From Candidatus Woesebacteria bacterium (lineage in GTDB: Bacteria > Patescibacteriota > Microgenomatia > UBA1400 > PJMF01): a DNA stretch of 64,000 bases. The notes below the pieces were generated by a model, which saw nothing but the letters and a program-made list of their open reading frames with translations, was not told the DNA's origin and did no database searches. Below, piece by piece: positions 3,007 to 53,702 of this stretch; positions within the stretch are counted from its first letter, which is position 1; each line of letters starts with the position of its first letter. Both the position numbers and the translations under genes were made by a program. The stretch is from assembly GCA_017999345.1 (NCBI GenBank), contig JAGNLY010000001.1, positions 6,884 through 70,883 on the forward strand. The letters run 5' to 3'.

Positions 3007-3035
3007 TTAGTCTAAATGATAATTCATGTTAGAAT
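3007..3035 (+). promoter_or_regulatory. Candidate sigma70-type promoter of the suf operon
   Basis: TTAGTC, a 17-nt spacer, then TAGAAT, about 28 nt upstream of the AAGGA ribosome-binding site and ATG 3063. Confidence 0.3.
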
Positions 3036-3062
3036 AGTTCCTCAACACTAAGGATTATTCAA

Positions 3063-3830
3063 ATGTCAAAAAATAGCTTCAGATTATCAAACCTAAAAGT
3101 TTCTATTGATGGAAAATCAATTCTTCGTGGAGTGGATTTGGAAGTAAAGGCTGGAGAAGTTCACGCTATCATGGGTCCAAATGGTTCTGGAAAATCAACT
3201 TTAGCCAATACTTTGGCAGGTCATCCAAGTTACCAGGTTGAAAGCGGAAGTGTTGTAATAAGTTCGCAAAAAACCCAAGAAAATATTTTAGACATGTCTC
3301 CAGACGAAAGAGCTAACCTTGGAGTTTTTCTAGCATTCCAGTACCCGGTGGAGGTCCCAGGAGTAAGAGTTCAAAATTTTCTTAAATTAGCTTACGAAGC
3401 TAGATTCAAAAATCAGCCAGAGCGACAATTCAAAAAAGCAATTGATTTTAGAAAGCATTTGCAAAATTTAGCAGAAGAATTAAAAATTAATAAAGATTTT
3501 TTGAGTCGCGGTCTTAATGAAGGTTTTAGTGGTGGCGAAAAGAAACAACTTGAAATTTTACAAATGGCTTTGCTTGAACCTAAATTTGCAATTTTAGATG
3601 AAACAGATTCTGGATTAGATATTGATGCAATTAAAAAAGTTGCCAATGGAGTTGTTGAAATTATCAAAAAACACAACACCGGCGTGATAGTAATCACACA
3701 TTATCAGCGAATTTTGGATTATCTTAAACCAGATTTTGTCCACGTTATGGTAAACGGCAAAATTGTGGAAACGGGTGATGCAACTTTAGTAGATAAGTTA
3801 GAGAAGAAAGGTTACGCTGATCTTAACTAA
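3063..3830 (+). CDS. sufC: Fe-S cluster assembly ATPase SufC
   Basis: Walker A GPNGSGKST, signature FSGGEKK and Walker B ILDETDSGLD. The length and the neighbouring sufB/D/S/U genes fit SufC. Confidence 0.95.
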   Translation: MSKNSFRLSNLKVSIDGKSILRGVDLEVKAGEVHAIMGPNGSGKSTLANTLAGHPSYQVESGSVVISSQKTQENILDMSPDERANLGVFLAFQYPVEVPGVRVQNFLKLAYEARFKNQPERQFKKAIDFRKHLQNLAEELKINKDFLSRGLNEGFSGGEKKQLEILQMALLEPKFAILDETDSGLDIDAIKKVANGVVEIIKKHNTGVIVITHYQRILDYLKPDFVHVMVNGKIVETGDATLVDKLEKKGYADLN

Positions 3831-3835
3831 ATAAA

Positions 3836-3893
3836 TTAATATTCAAAAGCTCTCGCAGGCAGTTCGCCTGAATGTTCGCTTTTTAAATATTAA
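3836..3893 (+). repeat. Palindromic intergenic element, copy E3 (apical hairpin AGGC/GCCT)
   Basis: TTAATATTCAAAAGC-TCTCGC-AGGCagttcGCCT-GAATGTTC-GCTTTTTAAATATTAA, directly after the sufC stop. The core is identical to the copy at 42754-42816. Confidence 0.8.
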
Positions 3894-3923
3894 TTTAATT
3901 TATTTAAACAATAATATATTTTT

Positions 3924-4406
3924 ATGAAAAAAGCTGACCACCAACTCACAAATAACGTCAAATTACTTCAAAAAGTTGTGCTAATTCATAACAATAAATT
4001 TTTGATTATGCGCAGATCAGAATCATCTCATTCAAGACCACTCGCTTGGGATTTGCCAGGAGGTAATTCTGAATGGCCAGAAACTCTTGATAACAAAGAG
4101 AACATGCATAAAAATGATGCTGTGAGAGAAATTTTTGAAGAAACTGGAATACAGTTGGACTCAGAAAAAATTATCATAGAAAATTTAGTTGATTTCAGAA
4201 CCTTTTTTGATGCAGAAAATCAAGTTTACAGTGTAATCGTTGGTTGGAAGATTAATTTAGATGAAAATTTTGATGAAGAATCAGTTGAAATTAGCGATGA
4301 GCATATTAATTTTAAATGGATCACGATTGAAGAAATTGATAACTTTGATTTTGGCGGTAACAAAGGTGAGTTTGTGAAAGAAATTATAAAAAAATCAGTA
4401 TCATAA
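3924..4406 (+). CDS. NUDIX hydrolase
   Basis: The Nudix box is spread as GGNSEW...NDAVREIFEETGIQ. The gene is embedded in the suf operon. Confidence 0.7.
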   Translation: MKKADHQLTNNVKLLQKVVLIHNNKFLIMRRSESSHSRPLAWDLPGGNSEWPETLDNKENMHKNDAVREIFEETGIQLDSEKIIIENLVDFRTFFDAENQVYSVIVGWKINLDENFDEESVEISDEHINFKWITIEEIDNFDFGGNKGEFVKEIIKKSVS

Positions 4407-4786: not shown

Positions 4787-6214
4787 ATGGCAAGATTTAC
4801 TAATAAGAAAACCAAAAATTTTGAAACAAGTGCTTCAGATTCTTATGAGCACGGTTTTTCCTATTCTACTGATGATTATAAATTTATTTCAAAACCTGGA
4901 ATTAATGAAGGTGTTGTTAAGGAAATTTCTGGAATTAAAAATGAACCAGAATGGATGCTTAAATTACGTTTAGAAGCTCTAAAAGCTTTTCAAGTGAAAC
5001 AAACTCCAATTTGGGGCGCAGATTTATCTTCAATTGATTACGATAAAATTCATTATTATTTAAGACCATCTGATAAACAAGAAAAATCTTGGGATGATGT
5101 GCCACCAGAAATTAAGGCCACTTTTGAAAAATTAGGAATTCCTGAGGCTGAACGTGAGGCTTTGGCAGGAGTTAAAGCCCAATATGATAGTGAAGTTGTT
5201 TATGGCTCACTAAAAGATATTTGGTCAAAAGATGGCGTGGTTTTCCTTTCAATGGACGAAGGACTCGCTCAATATCCAGATTTAGTAAAAGAATATTTCA
5301 ATAGAGTTATTCCTTATGGAGATAATAAATTTTCAGCTTTAAATACAGCAGCTTGGTCAGGTGGTTCATTTGTTTATATTCCAAAAGGGGTTCATGTACA
5401 AATGCCATTACAGACTTATTTTAGAATTAATTCTCCAAATGCTGGTCAGTTTGAAAGAACTTTAATTATTGTTGATGAAGGCGCAAGTGTTCACTACGTT
5501 GAAGGTTGTACTGCTCCAAGTTTTTCAAGTGGTTCGTTACATGCGGCGGTTGTAGAAATTTATGTTAAAAAAGGCGCAAGGTGTCAGTACACGACGGTCC
5601 AAAATTGGTACAAAAATGTTTATAACTTAGTCACCAAAAGAGCTCATGTTGAAGAAGAAGGTGAGATGGTTTGGACAGATTTTAATATGGGTTCAAAAGT
5701 AACCATGAAATACCCAGGTTTTATTTTGGCTGGAAAAGGTGCAAGAGGCGAGGTTTTGTCTATGGCTTTAGCTGGCGCAGGCCAACATCAAGACACAGGA
5801 ACTAAATCAATTCATTTAGCCCCATACACAAGCTCATCAGTTGTTTCTAAATCAATTAGCAAAAGTGGCGGTAGAACCAGTTATCGTGGTTTAGTTAATG
5901 TTGGTCCACATGCACATCATTCAAAAAATACAGTGATTTGTGACGCTTTGCTTTTGGATGGAATTTCTCGTTCTGACACTTATCCGACAGATAAAATTTT
6001 TAACTCAAATGTGGAAGTTCAGCACGAAGCCACTGTCTCTAAAATTGGTGATGACCAATTATTTTATTTAATGAGTAGAGGTGTGACTGAGGAACAAGCT
6101 CGTAAAATGATTGTGAATGGATTTATTGATGATTTGATTCGTAAATTGCCAATGGAGTATGCAGTAGAAATGAATAGGTTAATTGATCATGAGATGGAGG
6201 GCTCAATTGGTTAG
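4787..6214 (+). CDS. sufB: Fe-S cluster assembly scaffold SufB
   Basis: Typical SufB blocks: GGSFVYIPKGV, VHYVEGCTAP, TKRAHVEEEGEMVWTD and HEATVSKIGDDQLFYLMSRG. ATG 4787 follows the track's TTG at 4784. Confidence 0.95.
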   Translation: MARFTNKKTKNFETSASDSYEHGFSYSTDDYKFISKPGINEGVVKEISGIKNEPEWMLKLRLEALKAFQVKQTPIWGADLSSIDYDKIHYYLRPSDKQEKSWDDVPPEIKATFEKLGIPEAEREALAGVKAQYDSEVVYGSLKDIWSKDGVVFLSMDEGLAQYPDLVKEYFNRVIPYGDNKFSALNTAAWSGGSFVYIPKGVHVQMPLQTYFRINSPNAGQFERTLIIVDEGASVHYVEGCTAPSFSSGSLHAAVVEIYVKKGARCQYTTVQNWYKNVYNLVTKRAHVEEEGEMVWTDFNMGSKVTMKYPGFILAGKGARGEVLSMALAGAGQHQDTGTKSIHLAPYTSSSVVSKSISKSGGRTSYRGLVNVGPHAHHSKNTVICDALLLDGISRSDTYPTDKIFNSNVEVQHEATVSKIGDDQLFYLMSRGVTEEQARKMIVNGFIDDLIRKLPMEYAVEMNRLIDHEMEGSIG

Positions 6215-6225
6215 TTGTTTAACTT

Positions 6226-6290
6226 AATAAATATTTTAAAAAACTCTCTGCTAAGCAAAGCTTAGATGTTCGTTTTTTCAAATATTTATT
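6226..6290 (+). repeat. Palindromic intergenic element, copy E4 (apical hairpin CTAAGC/GCTTAG)
   Basis: AATAAATATTTTAAAAAAC-TCTCTG-CTAAGCaaaGCTTAG-ATGTTC-GTTTTTTCAAATATTTATT. The 19-bp outer stem has one mismatch. The core is identical to E1. Confidence 0.8.
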
Positions 6291-6328: not shown

Positions 6329-6380
6329 AAATATATAAAAACGAACATTCAAACGAAGTTTGCGAGAGTTTTTATTAATT
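6329..6380 (-). repeat. Palindromic intergenic element, copy E5 (inverted; apical hairpin AAAC/GTTT)
   Basis: AAAAACGAACATTCAAACGAAGTTTGCGAGAGTTTTT is the reverse complement of the E2 core. A partial CGAGAGAGTTTTT follows at about 6397-6409. Confidence 0.75.
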
Positions 6381-32538: not shown

Positions 32539-32667
32539 GCGGAGAGCGAGGGATTTACCCTCGTCATGCTCACATTTTTACATTATATTGAAGCTCACTT
32601 GATCAGGCACACCCCTAAGAGTATTTGCTAGGTGAACTAAGTTCACTTAGCGGGCACGAGTCATCCC
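32539..32667 (-). repeat. tRNA-Ser-linked element, copy B
   Basis: It differs from copy A by one base. On the minus strand it ends ...GACGAGGGTAAATCCCTCGCTCTCCGC, which is the T-stem/acceptor 3' strand of tRNA-Ser(UGA). Confidence 0.85.
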
Positions 32668-32714
32668 TCAGTTAAATTTGACAAAAACTGAGCTAAAGCT
32701 CACTTTCTGTCTAA

Positions 32715-32732
32715 TGGCGGAGAGCGAGGGAT
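32715..32732 (-). pseudogene. Isolated 3'-terminal fragment of tRNA-Ser(UGA), with CCA
   Basis: The minus strand reads ATCCCTCGCTCTCCGCCA. The upstream sequence is not tRNA-like. Confidence 0.7.
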
Positions 32733-32789
32733 GAAATTGGAACTTTTTTTCTCGATAAAGTGAGGCCTATAGATTAATAATATTTAAAA

Positions 32790-33374
32790 TCATTTTTTCA
32801 ATACATATAAAGTATGATGAGTGAATCTCAAAAAATTGAAAAAAGATTTTTTGTATACAATTTTCAATCCTATTTTTTTAAATTTATTTTCCCATTCTTT
32901 TTCAGAATTAAAGTTTAAAGCAAAGTTCATACTTAATTCTTCTGGAATATTTCCCAAAACATCTCTGAGTTTTACCCATTGCTTTTCAATATTACTTTTA
33001 TATGTATCTTCAAAAATAATAATTCTCTTTTTCGATATTCTTTTAACTTCCTTTAAGATAACATCTTGCTTTTCAATATGATGTAAGACACCAATTAACA
33101 TAGAAAAATCATAAAAATCATTTTTAAAAGGAATCTTTTGTCCATCGAAGATTGCATGAGGGAGATCGGTTAGGTTCATATCAATAACATCTAATCCATT
33201 GATTTTTACTTTTGAGTTTAAAGAAATATATTTTGAAATTAGCATATTGCCCGCACCCACATCCAAACCATTTTTTAGTGATTTAACATGTGGAGAAATA
33301 AGTTGTGCTAGGTATTTAGCTCTAGTTGCTAAAAATGGCCAATAGATAAATTTTAGTGGATTATTTTTTTTCAT
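32790..33374 (-). CDS. Class I SAM-dependent methyltransferase
   Basis: Motif I GLDVGAGNM and the post-I/II blocks (DFSMLIGVLHHI). It is bracketed by copies of the tRNA-Ser 3' end. Confidence 0.75.
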   Translation of the reverse strand: MKKNNPLKFIYWPFLATRAKYLAQLISPHVKSLKNGLDVGAGNMLISKYISLNSKVKINGLDVIDMNLTDLPHAIFDGQKIPFKNDFYDFSMLIGVLHHIEKQDVILKEVKRISKKRIIIFEDTYKSNIEKQWVKLRDVLGNIPEELSMNFALNFNSEKEWENKFKKIGLKIVYKKSFFNFLRFTHHTLYVLKK

Positions 33375-33474
33375 TAATTAAGTAAATGAGTCAAATATAT
33401 TTATGTCAATTAAAATTGATTTTCATCTGCGTATTTCATCACAAAATATGTGGAGATACTTGATTAAGATTATA

Positions 33475-33606
33475 TGGCGGAGAGCGAGGGATTTACCCTC
33501 GTCATGCTCACATTTTTACATTATATTGAAGCTCACTTGATCGGGCACACCCCTAAGAGTATTTGCTAGGTGAACTAAGTTCACTTAGCGGGCACGAGTC
33601 ATCCCC
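33475..33606 (-). repeat. tRNA-Ser-linked element, copy A
   Basis: The minus strand runs GGGGATGACTCGTGCCCGCTAAG...GAGCATGACGAGGGTAAATCCCTCGCTCTCCGCCA. It lies 48 nt downstream of tRNA-Ser(UGA), after a hairpin. Confidence 0.85.
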
Positions 33607-33654
33607 ACTTATTATGTACAAAAAAATGAACTAAAGTCCATTTTTTGTACATTG

Positions 33655-33738
33655 CGGAGAGCGAGGGATTCGAACCCACGGGACCATAAAGGTCACGGTT
33701 TTCAAGACCGTTGCGATTGACCACTCTGCCAGCTCTCC
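33655..33738 (-). tRNA. tRNA-Ser (anticodon UGA)
   Basis: GGAGAGCTGGCAGAGTGGTCAATCGCAACGGTCTTGAAAACCGTGACCTTTATGGTCCCGTGGGTTCGAATCCCTCGCTCTCCG has a long variable arm. CCA is not encoded. Confidence 0.9.
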
Positions 33739-35362: not shown

Positions 35363-35449
35363 GGAGGGATGTCGGAGTGGTTTAACGGCCAGCTCTCGAA
35401 AAGCTTGGGGGACTTACGTCTCACGGGGGTTCGAATCCCCCTCCCTCCG
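35363..35449 (+). tRNA. tRNA-Ser (anticodon CGA)
   Basis: GGAGGGATGTCGGAGTGGTTTAACGGCCAGCTCTCGAAAAGCTTGGGGGACTTACGTCTCACGGGGGTTCGAATCCCCCTCCCTCCG has a long variable arm. Confidence 0.9.
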
Positions 35450-35498
35450 CACTGGTCAGCAATATCGACGAAGTCGATAATTGTTGAGTAGTATGGAA

Positions 35499-35587
35499 GG
35501 GGATGAGAAGCAAGGTGCCCGATCAAGCGAGCCTCAAAATAATATAAGAATGCGAGCGTGACGAGGGTAAATCCCCCTCCCTCCGCA
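35499..35587 (+). repeat. tRNA-Ser-linked element, short copy C
   Basis: GGGGATGAGAAGCAAGGTGCCCGATCAAGCGAGCC...GCGTGACGAGGGTAAATCCCCCTCCCTCCGCA ends in the tRNA-Ser(CGA) 3' strand. It lacks the internal ~44-nt module. Confidence 0.8.
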
Positions 35588-35668
35588 TTGGTCTGAAAAG
35601 AGTTTCAAAATATAAATAGTTAGACACTAAAGTTGATAAAATATTCTTGAAAAGCTACAATAAAAACT

Positions 35669-35962
35669 ATGAAAAATAAAAATATTTACTATTTATATAA
35701 GCTTTTTAATTTCTTAAAAGTTGGCTTTTTTATTTTATTTTCTTCTTGGGTACTTTTATATTTAGTTCCAGCTTTTAGTCAGCCAACTATTTTTACAATA
35801 AAGACTAATATTTTTGAAGTTATTTTTGCAAGACAATATTTTTCAAAATCATTATATATAGCTTTTATACTTGGAATATTAACATTATTACTATTTTTTA
35901 TTACATCATACTTTAGAAAAAAAATAGAGATCATTGATACAAAAAGTAAAAAGAAAAGCTAA
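35669..35962 (+). CDS. Hypothetical small membrane protein (97 aa)
   Basis: Two or three hydrophobic segments. It is very AT-rich and its coding status is uncertain. Confidence 0.4.
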   Translation: MKNKNIYYLYKLFNFLKVGFFILFSSWVLLYLVPAFSQPTIFTIKTNIFEVIFARQYFSKSLYIAFILGILTLLLFFITSYFRKKIEIIDTKSKKKS

Positions 35963-36226
35963 TTATTTTTCAACGGCTTCTTTAGCCTCAAAATATTCAA
36001 ATGAACTAGCATCAAATCTATCTAAAAGACGATGATCCACCATCGAAAATTTGTCCATTACCATTTTTCTTAATTCTCCAGATAAAGGGTTATCTCCAGC
36101 ATCTTCTATTAAATCAGATATTTCTTTTAAATATGAGATTAGCACTTTCTTATTTTCGATATAGATTAGTTTCATTTGCTCAACCTCCTCAGTGGTAAAA
36201 GTTGTTTTATAATTATTATCTGTCAT
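35963..36226 (-). CDS. 87-aa protein of unknown function (paralog of 50502-50765)
   Basis: GGAG in AAAGGAGAT lies about 9 nt upstream of the ATG. A gap-free hand alignment gives 52 of 87 identical residues with the other copy. Confidence 0.6.
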   Translation of the reverse strand: MTDNNYKTTFTTEEVEQMKLIYIENKKVLISYLKEISDLIEDAGDNPLSGELRKMVMDKFSMVDHRLLDRFDASSFEYFEAKEAVEK

Positions 36227-36547
36227 TTTTATCTCCTTTTCATTTACAACTATAATAGTAAATTCAGTATAGCGTTAAATAAAGAAAAATAATATTCAAT
36301 TTAAAAGTAAATATTATTATTGATGAGACCAAATTAAAAAAAACAAGTGCTTACAGAAAAATACAGATCAAAAAACTTACTCATGATTAGAAAAAATATC
36401 TAGTAAAAAGCTTTTTCTTCTTGTAGTAAAGTTCCAAGTACGTCCGATTCGGACCGCCAAGTGAACATGGCGGATGACCAACGAGCTACCACACTGATTA
36501 GTACTCTCAACAAATACAATCATTTTATGATAAGCTAACAAAATAAT

Positions 36548-42506: not shown

Positions 42507-42755
42507 ATGAAAAACTGGTTTGTTTATATCCTAAAATGTGGTGATAATTCACTTTATACAGGTTCAACAACTGATCTTGAAAAAAGATTGGCTAAACACT
42601 CAAGTGGTTTGGGTGCAAAATATACTCGTAGTCACCTGCCAGTAAAATTAGTTTATTTTGAGAAACTTTCTAGTAAATCACTAGCTTTTAAACGTGAAGC
42701 TGAGATTAAGAGGTTATCTAGAAAAGAAAAGCTGTTAATTTTAGATACCAAATAA
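42507..42755 (+). CDS. GIY-YIG domain protein (stand-alone URI nuclease domain)
   Basis: WFVYILKCGDNSLYTGSTTDLEKRLAKH is the GIY...YIG pattern, followed by a conserved Arg and Glu. Confidence 0.8.
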   Translation: MKNWFVYILKCGDNSLYTGSTTDLEKRLAKHSSGLGAKYTRSHLPVKLVYFEKLSSKSLAFKREAEIKRLSRKEKLLILDTK

Positions 42756-42816
42756 TAAATATTTGAAAAGCTCTCGCAGGCAGTTCGCCTGAATGTTCGC
42801 TTTTCAAATATTTATT
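42754..42816 (+). repeat. Palindromic intergenic element, copy E6 (apical hairpin AGGC/GCCT)
   Basis: AATAAATATTTGAAAAGC-TCTCGC-AGGCagttcGCCT-GAATGTTC-GCTTTTCAAATATTTATT. The 18-bp outer stem is perfect. Confidence 0.85.
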
Positions 42817-42892
42817 AAAGTCAATAAAATTAACTGATTTATACTATAATAATTAATATACGAAATCAAAATATTTTTTATAGTGAACATGG

Positions 42893-50501: not shown

Positions 50502-50765
50502 TTAAGCTTCTTGATTTTCGTTTGCTTCGAAATATTCAAAAGAAGCTACGTCAAATTTATCCCAAAGTCGGTGGTCAATCATAGAAAATTTGTCCATTAG
50601 CATTTTTCTGTTTTCACCTGTAATTGGGGTTTCTCCAGAATCTTCAATTATTTGTGCAACTTCTCGTAAATATGAAGTCAGAATTTTTTTTGCTTCCAAA
50701 TATGCAGTCTTTTTTTGCATAATCTCATCTGCAGTAAATGTGGTTTTATATTGAATGTCTGACAT
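50502..50765 (-). CDS. 87-aa protein of unknown function (paralog of 35963-36226)
   Basis: AAGGAGTAATT precedes the ATG. The shared blocks are YKTTFT, SYL, IED.G, RKM.MDKFSM.DHRL and SFEYFEA. Confidence 0.6.
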   Translation of the reverse strand: MSDIQYKTTFTADEIMQKKTAYLEAKKILTSYLREVAQIIEDSGETPITGENRKMLMDKFSMIDHRLWDKFDVASFEYFEANENQEA

Positions 50766-51196: not shown

Positions 51197-51231
51197 AAAT
51201 AATTCTTGCTCGTAGTGAAGGATGTTCATTG

Positions 51232-51362
51232 TCGGAGGTGAAGGGATTTACCCTCGTCATGCTCATAATTTTAAAATAATTTTTGACATTCGCTTGATAG
51301 GGCACACCTCTAAGAGTATTTTCTAGGTGAACTAAGTTCTCTTAGCGGGCGAAAGTCATCCC
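51232..51362 (-). repeat. tRNA-Ser-linked element, copy D
   Basis: The minus strand runs GGGATGACTTTCGCCCGCTAAGAG...GAGCATGACGAGGGTAAATCCCTTCACCTCCGA. The end matches tRNA-Ser(GGA), not Ser(UGA). Confidence 0.85.
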
Positions 51363-51411
51363 TTAATTTAATTTGACAAAAACTGAGCTAAAGCTCACTT
51401 TTCGTCAAAAG

Positions 51412-51494
51412 CGGAGGTGAAGGGATTCGAACCCTTGGATCCAAAAGGATCACGCTTTCCAGGCGTGTGCAATTGACCACTATGCGACACCTCC
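51412..51494 (-). tRNA. tRNA-Ser (anticodon GGA)
   Basis: GGAGGTGTCGCATAGTGGTCAATTGCACACGCCTGGAAAGCGTGATCCTTTTGGATCCAAGGGTTCGAATCCCTTCACCTCCG. Confidence 0.9.
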
Positions 51495-52201: not shown

Positions 52202-52267
52202 CACTGATCAGTAAGTTATCAATAAGTTGACAAGTTGGTGAAGGATTAATTGTGAGTACATACTGAT

Positions 52268-53614: not shown

Positions 53615-53702
<88 letters not shown>

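Follow-up and report, generated by a model that had tools for sequence, protein, structure and literature searches.

Small modules arrayed in tandem at the 3' end of a tRNA-Ser(UGA) gene in Candidatus Woesebacteria: a probable case of accretion of non-autonomous integrative elements

The stretch of DNA analysed here (the window) comprises 64,000 nt of Candidatus Woesebacteria contig JAGNLY010000001.1 (GCA_017999345.1; positions 6,884-70,883 of the forward strand), and our subject is an array of short repeats, hairpins, non-coding elements and one methyltransferase gene that follows its tRNA-Ser(UGA) gene. ARAGORN identified five tRNA-Ser genes (UGA, CGA, GGA, GCT and ACT), a tRNA-Arg, a tRNA-Val and a tmRNA in the window. 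The tRNA-Ser(UGA) gene is intact (33654..33738, minus strand; 47.4 bits with the Rfam tRNA model). A pattern search located four copies of its last 16 nt, ATCCCTCGCTCTCCGC, which run from T-loop A59 to the discriminator region; the first of these, R0 (33654-33669), is the tRNA's own 3' end. Read along the minus strand, the tRNA is followed by hairpin 1, a non-coding element which we call type-1 (copy A), repeat R1, a leader, the methyltransferase gene and a right-end motif termed t2, repeat R2, hairpin 2, a second type-1 element (copy B), repeat R3 and the flank. The array thus consists of three tandem units, U1 (hairpin and type-1), U2 (the methyltransferase cassette) and U3 (hairpin and type-1), and has an attL-attR pattern, with R0 inside the intact tRNA and R1, R2 and R3 each closing one unit. 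A first-pass annotation of the sequence had given this order of parts, and the four exact repeat copies, the ARAGORN tRNA and the methyltransferase open reading frame (ORF) bear it out; the annotation spoke of nested copies, whereas the units are in fact tandem, and of R2 as a bare 18-nt fragment, whereas t2 directly precedes it.

Hairpin 1 (33614..33652, minus; ATGTACAAAAAATGGAC TTTA GTTCATTTTTTTGTACAT) opens U1 and has a terminator-like look, and related hairpins are present in L010 and L011 (L numbers denote the comparison loci). Copy A (33493..33606, minus) is a 114-nt element of the long form, which differs from the short form by an optional 47-nt hairpin (here 33543-33589) between GTGCCC direct repeats. 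R1 (33475..33492, minus) reads ATCCCTCGCTCTCCGC plus CA, as does R2 (32715..32732, minus), and between them lies the 0.74-kb cassette U2 (32733..33474, minus). Hairpin 2 (32680..32711, minus; GACAGAAAGTGAGC TTTA GCTCAGTTTTTGTC) has a terminator-like score on either strand, and it is a homolog of the hairpin that follows tRNA-Ser(GGA). Copy B (32555..32668, minus) is likewise of the long form, with its insert at 32605-32651 and one mismatch to copy A, and is closed by R3 (32539..32554, minus). The 14-mer CCCTCGCTCTCCGC has four exact minus-strand copies (33654, 33477, 32717 and 32539) against 0.03 expected by chance, and none of 100 shuffles held five or more matches. The sequence to the left of the four ATCCCTCGCTCTCCGC copies is GGGTTCGA at R0 (the tRNA itself), GACGAGGGTAA at R1 and R3, and AGTTCCAATTTC at R2. 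Every module boundary falls between T-loop A58 and A59, and a copy of the ATCCC...CCGC block follows each module. Counted with the repeat, copies A (33477-33605) and B (32539-32667) are 129 nt each and 99% identical, their only internal difference being GTGCCCGATC vs GTGCCTGATC.

The methyltransferase ORF (32790-33374, minus) encodes a 194-aa class I S-adenosylmethionine-dependent enzyme (Pfam Methyltransf_23, 5.6e-08; Methyltransf_11, 6.8e-07) and is preceded by a 100-nt leader that begins with TATAAT. In a GC profile, the cassette has a content of 0.25-0.27, compared to about 0.35 in the flanking genes. The closest homolog besides the window's own (88% amino acid identity) lies on the L012 contig, in the order t2-R', hairpin, type-1, R of the GGA type, methyltransferase, t2-R', a 340-aa gene, t2-R', hairpin, a different element of about 150 nt and R of the GGA type. 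The two cassettes share about 90% nucleotide identity from CATATAAT, right after the tRNA-end copy, to the end of t2, and the tRNA-end copies which flank them differ between the window and L012. A further homolog in L029/L039 is 72% identical, and the conserved neighbour protein on the same contig is only 57% identical to that of the window. A homolog at 56% identity sits in ordinary chromosomal context with no t2, which indicates that the family is not intrinsically mobile and that one clade of it is cassette-borne. The methyltransferase cassette is, judged from its sequence, a portable module.

The right-end motif t2 (32733-32770, minus) is a 38-nt sequence, ATAGGCCTCACTTTATCGAGAAAAAAAGTTCCAATTTC, ending in AAAGTTCCAATTTC, and recurs before tRNA-end copies in at least six other genomes. 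In L029 there are five copies of TAAAGTTCCAATTTC followed by ATCCCAYGCTCYCCGC, spaced by 956, 580, 346 and 375 bp, and each t2 junction closes one small gene (GIY-YIG, P-loop kinase-like, GIY-YIG and a 98-aa ORF). Upstream of this array, on the one contig (L039), is tRNA-Ser(UGA); L039 is among the loci fetched through homologs of the 186-aa protein encoded next to the window's array, and hence chosen independently of the repeats. Between that tRNA and the first t2 of L039 is a 5.6-kb element, uninterrupted by any tRNA-end copy, which encodes a 506-aa large serine recombinase (LSR) with Resolvase, Recombinase and zinc-ribbon domains (5.2e-17, 2.3e-16 and 3.6e-07), a Rep protein of the rolling-circle type (REP_ORF2-G2P) and six further ORFs. 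The same LSR domain set adjoins the att site in L041, L044 and L046 and is not found in the window, and the recombinase ORF runs antisense across the tRNA 3' end (..KKWRRARDSNPR).

LSR homologs accompanied by the same Rep and small ORF occur at three further serine tRNAs (78-92% identity). The LSR of L041, at tRNA-Ser(CGA), is 78% identical to that of L039 and serves as the reference, its distal end falling outside the locus; that of L044 (same genome as L010), at tRNA-Ser(GGA), is 92% identical to the L041 protein, with t2 at 3.7 kb from the tRNA and two more t2-closed modules behind it; that of L046-L049, at tRNA-Ser(ACT), is 81% identical to the L041 protein, with t2 at 5.4 kb. The elements at these three tRNAs have in common the junction CCGCCA/TTTTTYTAAATC (the slash marks the joint), with t2 at the far end. 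The extended t2 of L046 (ATAGGCCTCACTTTATCGAGAGAAAAAAGTTCCAATTTC) agrees with that of the window at 38 of 39 positions, and the right end TAAAGTTCCAATTTC/ATCCC is common to the window cassette and the recombinase and Rep elements of the relatives. The native 3' end of tRNA-Ser(ACT), with its flank, is preceded by t2 in L019, the joint lying exactly at ATCCC, whereas this gene is intact in L024, of the same species. The shared end at the LSR loci and the L019 junction lead us to regard t2 as the distal end of LSR and Rep elements that use tRNA-Ser genes. The methyltransferase cassette of the window carries such an LSR-element end without the recombinase. The window has its tRNA-Ser(ACT), whose anticodon is unusual, at 53615-53702 (plus), and the gene is conserved in L024 (745-830) and L046 (11453-11540); the LSR element is inserted there in L046-L049, and only the 3' end, joined to t2, is left in L019 (at about 3095).

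A search for tyrosine integrases by regular expression and Pfam found only an Xer-like protein beside tRNA-Ala(GGC), linked to no junction. This 311-aa recombinase (L015, about 3159-4131, minus; L026, 6192-7127, plus) is encoded about 290 nt upstream of a tRNA-Ala(GGC) that bears a type-1 element; it scores below the XerC/XerD equivalog cut-offs and is probably a housekeeping protein. Scans of viral contigs with a type-1 21-mer, a t2 18-mer and the LSR protein returned nothing, or only relatives of 25% identity.

A strain variant of the locus, L001 (a contig of GCA_964639735.1), was found by exact-protein look-up of the 186-aa neighbour gene. It encodes an identical 186-aa protein, its flanks are 100% identical to the window, and it consists only of the tRNA, hairpin 2, a short-form type-1 element, R and the flank, the same flank that follows R3 in the window. 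The window exceeds L001 by some 0.94 kb, made up of hairpin 1, copy A, R1, the methyltransferase and t2, and the breakpoints fall at the repeats. In the window, R2 has a trailer (CATTAGACAGAAAG) that matches that of the L001 tRNA (CATATGACAGAAAG), and therefore R2 is best read as the displaced former 3' end of the tRNA. Since the short-form element is not present at the window's Ser(UGA) array, L001 is a true allele, not an assembly collapse. In L006, L010, L005 and L013, a coding gene directly follows the orthologous tRNA-Ser(UGA); this tRNA carries a decayed remnant in L003 and is followed by a different small unit in the closest relative, L041; no unit stands after tRNA-Ser(CGA) in L039 or after tRNA-Ser(GGA) in L019. 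As the empty orthologous sites have no hairpin, the hairpin belongs to the inserted unit. Gain and loss thus affect whole modules, each delimited by the 16-nt block. Contigs of other assemblies end inside the repeats (L001, L002 and L036-L038), as expected of repeated mobile DNA, and exact-protein look-ups of the flanking genes yielded only such repeat-broken contigs and no further alleles.

These observations bear on the suggestion of the first-pass annotation that serial insertions had occurred at one tRNA attachment site, with the methyltransferase as the sole protein cargo, a suggestion with which all the tests that could be run agree. It had proposed comparing the locus across relatives and strain variants, and had held that a four-repeat arrangement fixed across relatives would speak for an old structural feature; we find that the units are variably present, that L001 lacks U1 and U2, and that occupancy of the site varies. 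It had also taken the near-identity of copies A and B as a sign of recent duplication. The single internal difference stands; the near-identity may be due to gene conversion in place of duplication, as the strain variant has a short-form element.

We think it probable that three small integrative modules, all of them non-autonomous, have accreted in tandem at the tRNA-Ser(UGA) 3' end, and, as part of this reading and with the same degree of confidence, that this 3' end is a recombination hot spot in the present lineage of Patescibacteria, one of Paceibacteria-like metagenome-assembled genomes. The array could in principle have arisen with no mobile element at all, by local tandem duplication and by unequal or homologous recombination between the tRNA-end repeats around a resident methyltransferase gene, L001 being an R0-R2 deletion. 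The 99% identity of copies A and B at a distance of 938 bp, the derivation of L001 by deletion between two 16-18-nt direct repeats, and the ordinary chromosomal context of the 56%-identity methyltransferase homolog all suit such an origin, which we nevertheless rate as very unlikely: the hairpins of U1 and U3 differ, so that the array is not a plain tandem duplicate; the short-form element of L001 is not obtainable by simple deletion of the window sequence; the GC content of the cassette is atypical; and the cassette and its 38-nt right end recur at other tRNAs in other genomes and at the ends of LSR elements, with the same junction in the cassette arrays of L029.

The type-1 element is not confined to the tRNA-Ser(UGA) array. 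At tRNA-Ser(CGA) (35363..35587, plus), the tRNA (35363-35450) is followed by a hairpin, a short-form type-1 element (35499-35570) and a copy of the tRNA's own 3' end (35571-35586; ATCCCCCTCCCTCCGC plus a similar trailer). At tRNA-Ser(GGA) (51233..51494, minus), the tRNA (51411-51494) is followed by a hairpin (51365-51410), a long-form element (51248-51364) and again its own 3'-end copy (51233-51247; ATCCCTTCACCTCCG). Both units thus end in the 3' end of their own tRNA, not in the UGA sequence. The resemblance of hairpin 2 to the Ser(GGA) hairpin, already seen in the first-pass annotation, is confirmed and extends further, as hairpin 2 and copy B together are homologous to 51230-51410. The tRNA-Ser(CGA) gene is an ARAGORN call which the Rfam tRNA model does not list at its gathering threshold; its L010 orthologue scores 45 bits. 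After tRNA-Ser(GCT), the stretch 52203-52267 has a CACTGRTCAG trailer, a hairpin and a GAAGGAT stretch in common with the Ser(CGA) units, and may be a truncated or decayed unit abutting the start of a 127-aa ORF; a GC-rich segment of about 200 nt with many potential helices follows the tRNA-Ser(GCT) of L019 (about 1010-1230, plus) and has no Rfam match at gathering score. The window also holds two families of intergenic hairpin repeats (e.g. AAAAGCTCTCGCAGGCAGTTCGCCTGAATGTTCGCTTTT; 3826-3908 and 42747-42829; 1967-2036, 6208-6277, 2066-2106 and 6331-6371), present as direct and inverted copies and of terminator- or REP-type look.

When one genome per species was surveyed with the invariant 21-mer GAGCRTGACGAGGGTAAATCC, 14 loci came up, almost all of them in metagenome-assembled genomes of Patescibacteria. 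In these relatives, a tRNA on the same strand stands 100-190 nt upstream of type-1, a hairpin comes between the two, and the element closes with the 3' end of that tRNA; the hosts are Ser(CGA) in L003, L005, L006, L010, L011 and L013, Ser(GGA) in L007, Cys(GCA) in L008, L009 and L022, and Ala(GGC) in L015. A metagenome scan added one new lineage (L022), the rest being chance matches in GC-rich DNA (L014, L020, L021 and L028). The element has the conserved blocks GGGATGA, GTGCCCGATCAAGYGA and GAGCATGACGAGGGTAA. The copied tRNA segment starts at T-loop A59 and extends 2-11 nt into the local gene trailer (for example CACTGGTCAGCAA vs CATTGGTCTGAAA), which indicates that it derives from the gene and not from the mature tRNA. 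Subtypes are not tied to tRNA identity, and therefore the unit moves between tRNAs. A related family of about 90-170 nt (L041, L012, L046 and L010) ends in CGTGA plus the block and has AAGCGA..GTGAGC motifs in common with type-1. We found no recurrent neighbouring gene among the type-1 loci, and three Rfam 15 scans, with E values admitted up to 10, placed no family over the elements, only tRNA and tmRNA being matched.

Several simpler identities for the element or its terminal copy were considered and rejected. Reverse transcription of a mature tRNA, halted after 18 nt at m1A58, does not fit copies that hold 2-11 nt of gene trailer and an inconsistent CCA; nor does target-site duplication by a transposase fit a duplicated length of 16-29 nt and the lack of terminal inverted repeats. 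Spacer indels exclude a reading frame and with it a coding remnant, the only possible coding piece being a C-terminal tail (..RDLPSSCS) antisense to the last 21 nt. A promoter was suggested by a -10-like TATAAT before GAGC, but a consensus scan did no better than shuffles and the downstream strands are inconsistent. Likeness to a hammerhead or K-turn fails as core positions vary (GGGATGA/GGGATGT), and a tRNA pseudogene (GATCAAGCGA vs D-loop GGTCAATCGC) is detected neither by the tRNA covariance model nor by ARAGORN.

A more substantial alternative is that type-1 is a structured non-coding RNA, or a folded single-stranded DNA site, which stands by tRNA genes and whose 3' end mimics the neighbouring tRNA through a T-arm-like hairpin and an acceptor 3' strand. 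The repeats would then be functional mimicry, and the array would have formed by duplication of the RNA gene and capture of the methyltransferase, a scheme compatible with an integrative methyltransferase cassette. Independent minimum-free-energy predictions give the same fold (P1, NGGGAU/AUCCCN; P2, UGCCC/GGGUA; P3, UCA/UGA; then GC/GC with a possible tandem G.A), although folding z-scores are weak (-2.3 to +0.2) and no Rfam family matches. Covariation links the base preceding GGGAU to the first tRNA-specific base that follows AUCCC (C-G, G-C, A-U, U-A and G.U; permutation p about 0.01), and pair-count covariation is 0.138 vs 0.102, the observed value being reached by only 4-5 of 500 shuffles; this signal comes from one to three pairs, a level at which the false-positive rate of the test is 5-25%. 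Paired positions show four substitutions, each of which is compatible with wobble pairing in the tRNA-sense strand only. GC-rich conserved blocks flank a hypervariable spacer and the optional 47-nt hairpin domain in an AT-rich genome, and the element is kept downstream of tRNA-Ser(CGA) in seven genomes of different species, six of them with a syntenic tRNA-Ser(UGA)/tRNA-Arg(GCG)/tRNA-Ser(CGA) cluster. On the other hand, it stands behind a terminator-like hairpin with no supported promoter, no 5' partner for the acceptor strand was found, the tRNA-end copy is decayed at some loci (L011 and the second copy in L010), and the element is absent from the orthologous site in L039, with no type-1 sequence anywhere in L041. 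On balance we regard this alternative as unlikely.

The cargo seen as single genes includes the methyltransferase, GIY-YIG nucleases, kinase-like and Fic-like proteins and restriction-modification genes. Small stand-alone GIY-YIG proteins of 83-96 aa recur, their stop codon often inside t2 (L029 1918-2187, 2823-3113 and 5940-6191; L019 about 3030-3078; L006 3535-3795; and upstream of a partial element in L016/L025). These genes suggest another route, homing, in which a GIY-YIG nuclease would cut the T loop GGTTCGAATCC of an empty tRNA, repair would copy the cassette in, and the resulting junction GTTCCAATTTCATCC would destroy the cut site. All junctions do map to the T loop, and GIY-YIG genes with the stop codon inside t2 stand at the t2 junction twice in L029 and once in L019, with a remnant in L016/L025. 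However, the proteins consist of the catalytic domain only, with no DNA-binding domain; the cassette of the window and most others have no GIY-YIG gene; homing is unable to move a cassette between different tRNAs; and a complete recombinase and Rep element with the same end is the simpler agent. Homing is thus the least credible of the explanations weighed here, with a slim chance at best.

Other cargo of the recombinase elements and cassettes has a defence or conflict look (L041 8059-10549, L046 6162-8486, L039 5805-7071 and L010 550-1341), namely a C5 DNA methylase with a Bsp6I-type restriction enzyme, a 774-aa SMC_N protein, a DUF3800 protein, a weak HepT-like match and a 263-aa protein that has, by eye, a Fic-like HxxxxGNGRxxR motif. 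Right after the tRNA-end copy, two genomes share a sequence of about 45 nt, TTGAAAAGTTMTGWCAGACCCGTCTAATATGRTYGAATGGGTTGA (L010, about 3600-3645, minus; L019, about 450-507, minus), which is probably the left end of another module family; other recurring left ends are ATGATGGAACT (L010 and L012) and GTCAGAAYTCCAGGYTAGRAATGTG (L044 and L012). In the window, the stretch 35600-36400 begins right after the Ser(CGA) type-1 element and tRNA-end copy, has a GC content of 0.21-0.26 and holds ORFs of 97 and 87 aa; it is similar to the methyltransferase cassette with its low GC, and may itself be a cassette whose right end is not recognisable. The paralogous 87-aa genes at 35963-36226 and 50502-50765 (both minus; 186 nt at 72% identity, no Pfam match) are found at the Ser(CGA) and Ser(GGA) loci, some hundreds of bases past the type-1 units.

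Returning to accretion, we propose the following series of events. Because the methyltransferase module has the right end of an LSR element (..AAAGTTCCAATTTC/ATCCC..), it was most likely mobilised in trans by an LSR of the family that shares t2. As the window encodes no recombinase, its modules are non-autonomous, and an LSR-family enzyme supplied from elsewhere would have moved them. The recombinase would act on t2 plus the block as an attP-like site and on the T-arm plus the block as attB. The most likely order is that U3, hairpin 2 with its element, was resident first, as in L001, and that the 0.94-kb block of U1 and U2 inserted at the tRNA afterwards, pushing aside the former 3' end, now R2; L012 has the same order of hairpin, type-1, R, methyltransferase and t2. 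Copies A and B would have been homogenised later by gene conversion, or L001 would have lost the 47-nt insert. The hairpin and type-1 would form a second kind of small module, in which the conserved 21-25 nt may serve as a recombinase half-site or arm. No other part of the explanation is as weak. With respect to the junction, type-1 stands where t2 does; its strict conservation is limited to the 21-25 nt that adjoin the junction, and in 3/3 arrays (window, L012 and L010) a t2-closed cassette begins right after type-1 and the block. A crossover at the block's 5' edge, in which the element would provide the new 3' end, suits the window and L019.

A number of points weigh against this account. 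The 64-kb window itself encodes no recombinase, and LSRs are, to our knowledge, not classically tRNA-targeting. The crossover point is not fixed across loci, as the copy after t2 equals the local tRNA in the window and in L019 and differs from it through about position 12 in L044 and L046, where either older modules lie behind the element or the crossover took place at the block's 3' edge. Nothing is shared between type-1 units and t2, and the terminal copies of these units match five different tRNAs, which a simple integrase model does not explain. Their persistence after tRNA-Ser(CGA), mostly in the syntenic cluster, also counts against it, and blocks that hold their sequence around a central spacer saturated with changes suggest that the unit has a function at its site and is not purely selfish mobile DNA.

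In a bolder proposal, tRNA-Ser genes of these Patescibacteria would be integron-like platforms where an LSR shuffles single-gene cassettes bearing pseudo tRNA 3' ends of about 30 nt, and type-1 (85-130 nt) would be no debris but an active accessory, perhaps a structured RNA or folded DNA that presents the local tRNA-end copy as a secondary landing site. We put this forward tentatively and do not expect it to hold in full. In its boldest form, type-1 may be a scaffold-plus-guide RNA, the T-loop TTCGA by the target being replaced with GGGTAA in the copy of the element.

Accretion of this kind has parallels among known systems. The staphylococcal cassette chromosome (SCC) composite islands of staphylococci (SCCmec and recombinase-less SCC-like elements) employ LSRs that insert at the 3' end of a housekeeping gene, which is kept intact; short direct repeats delimit the elements, tandem arrays form, and recombinase-less cassettes are mobilised in trans. 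The Patescibacteria elements resemble them in the LSR, the target at the 3' end of a conserved gene, the end-repeats, the tandem arrays and the recombinase-less cassettes. They differ in that the target is tRNA-Ser (four isoacceptors) and not rlmH, the hosts are Patescibacteria, the elements carry Rep, the cassettes go down to about 350 bp with one gene, and the recombinase ORF lies antisense across the tRNA 3' end. The cis-mobilisable elements (CIMEs) related to ICESt1/ICESt3 are kilobases long, depend on tyrosine integrases at the fda gene and consist of non-autonomous DNA between att sites, and tandem accretion with an autonomous element leads to joint or separate excision; att-flanked non-autonomous DNA and tandem accretion are what our array has in common with them. 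Actinomycete integrative plasmids of the pSAM2 type combine Rep with a tyrosine integrase and transfer genes at a tRNA 3' end. The LSR elements share with them Rep and a site-specific recombinase at a tRNA 3' end, a likeness that rests on a faint RepSA Pfam match, and are unlike pSAM2 in its tyrosine integrase and transfer genes. We know of no described counterpart of the 150-190-bp hairpin and type-1 unit.

The arrays recall integron cassettes in that they consist of genes that stand singly and for the most part lack a promoter, in that a short conserved recombination site closes each gene (five in 2.3 kb in L029), and in that the recombinase is encoded elsewhere. Unlike integrons, the arrays have no IntI, attI or attC; the repeated site lacks an attC-type dyad and is a pseudo tRNA 3' end (TAAAGTTCCAATTTC plus ATCCC..CCGC), and the enzyme is a serine recombinase. 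The tycheposons of Prochlorococcus integrate at tRNA genes, including tRNA-Ser(UGA), in streamlined genomes and leave remnants and extra partial tRNAs; in their accretion only a partial tRNA separates elements and newcomers push older ones outward, and they have tyrosine recombinases, att sites of about 40 nt and multi-gene cargo (bioRxiv 10.1101/2020.12.28.424599). Our locus is like them in tandem accretion at a tRNA att site in a streamlined genome, and unlike them in that the only junction-linked recombinase is an LSR, the repeat is 16-18 nt and the window modules have no recombinase. Membership of the tycheposons or of the integrons therefore fails on the recombinase and the site architecture. 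In the literature searched, neither tRNA-anchored cassette arrays nor serine recombinases that target tRNA-Ser are described for Patescibacteria. The array is a novel form of the already known tRNA-anchored accretion of integrative elements.

Patescibacteria, the candidate phyla radiation, have tiny genomes in which few mobile elements have been described. The locus and its relatives point to a route of gene flux in which one LSR and Rep family acts on the 3' end that several serine tRNAs have in common, and single-gene cassettes are either left in its wake or mobilised by it. If this is true, accessory-gene exchange in uncultured ultra-small bacteria could be studied in a tractable model, a serine integrase would be known whose natural target is compact, conserved and found several times in each genome, and tRNA genes would have a new conserved non-coding element associated with them.

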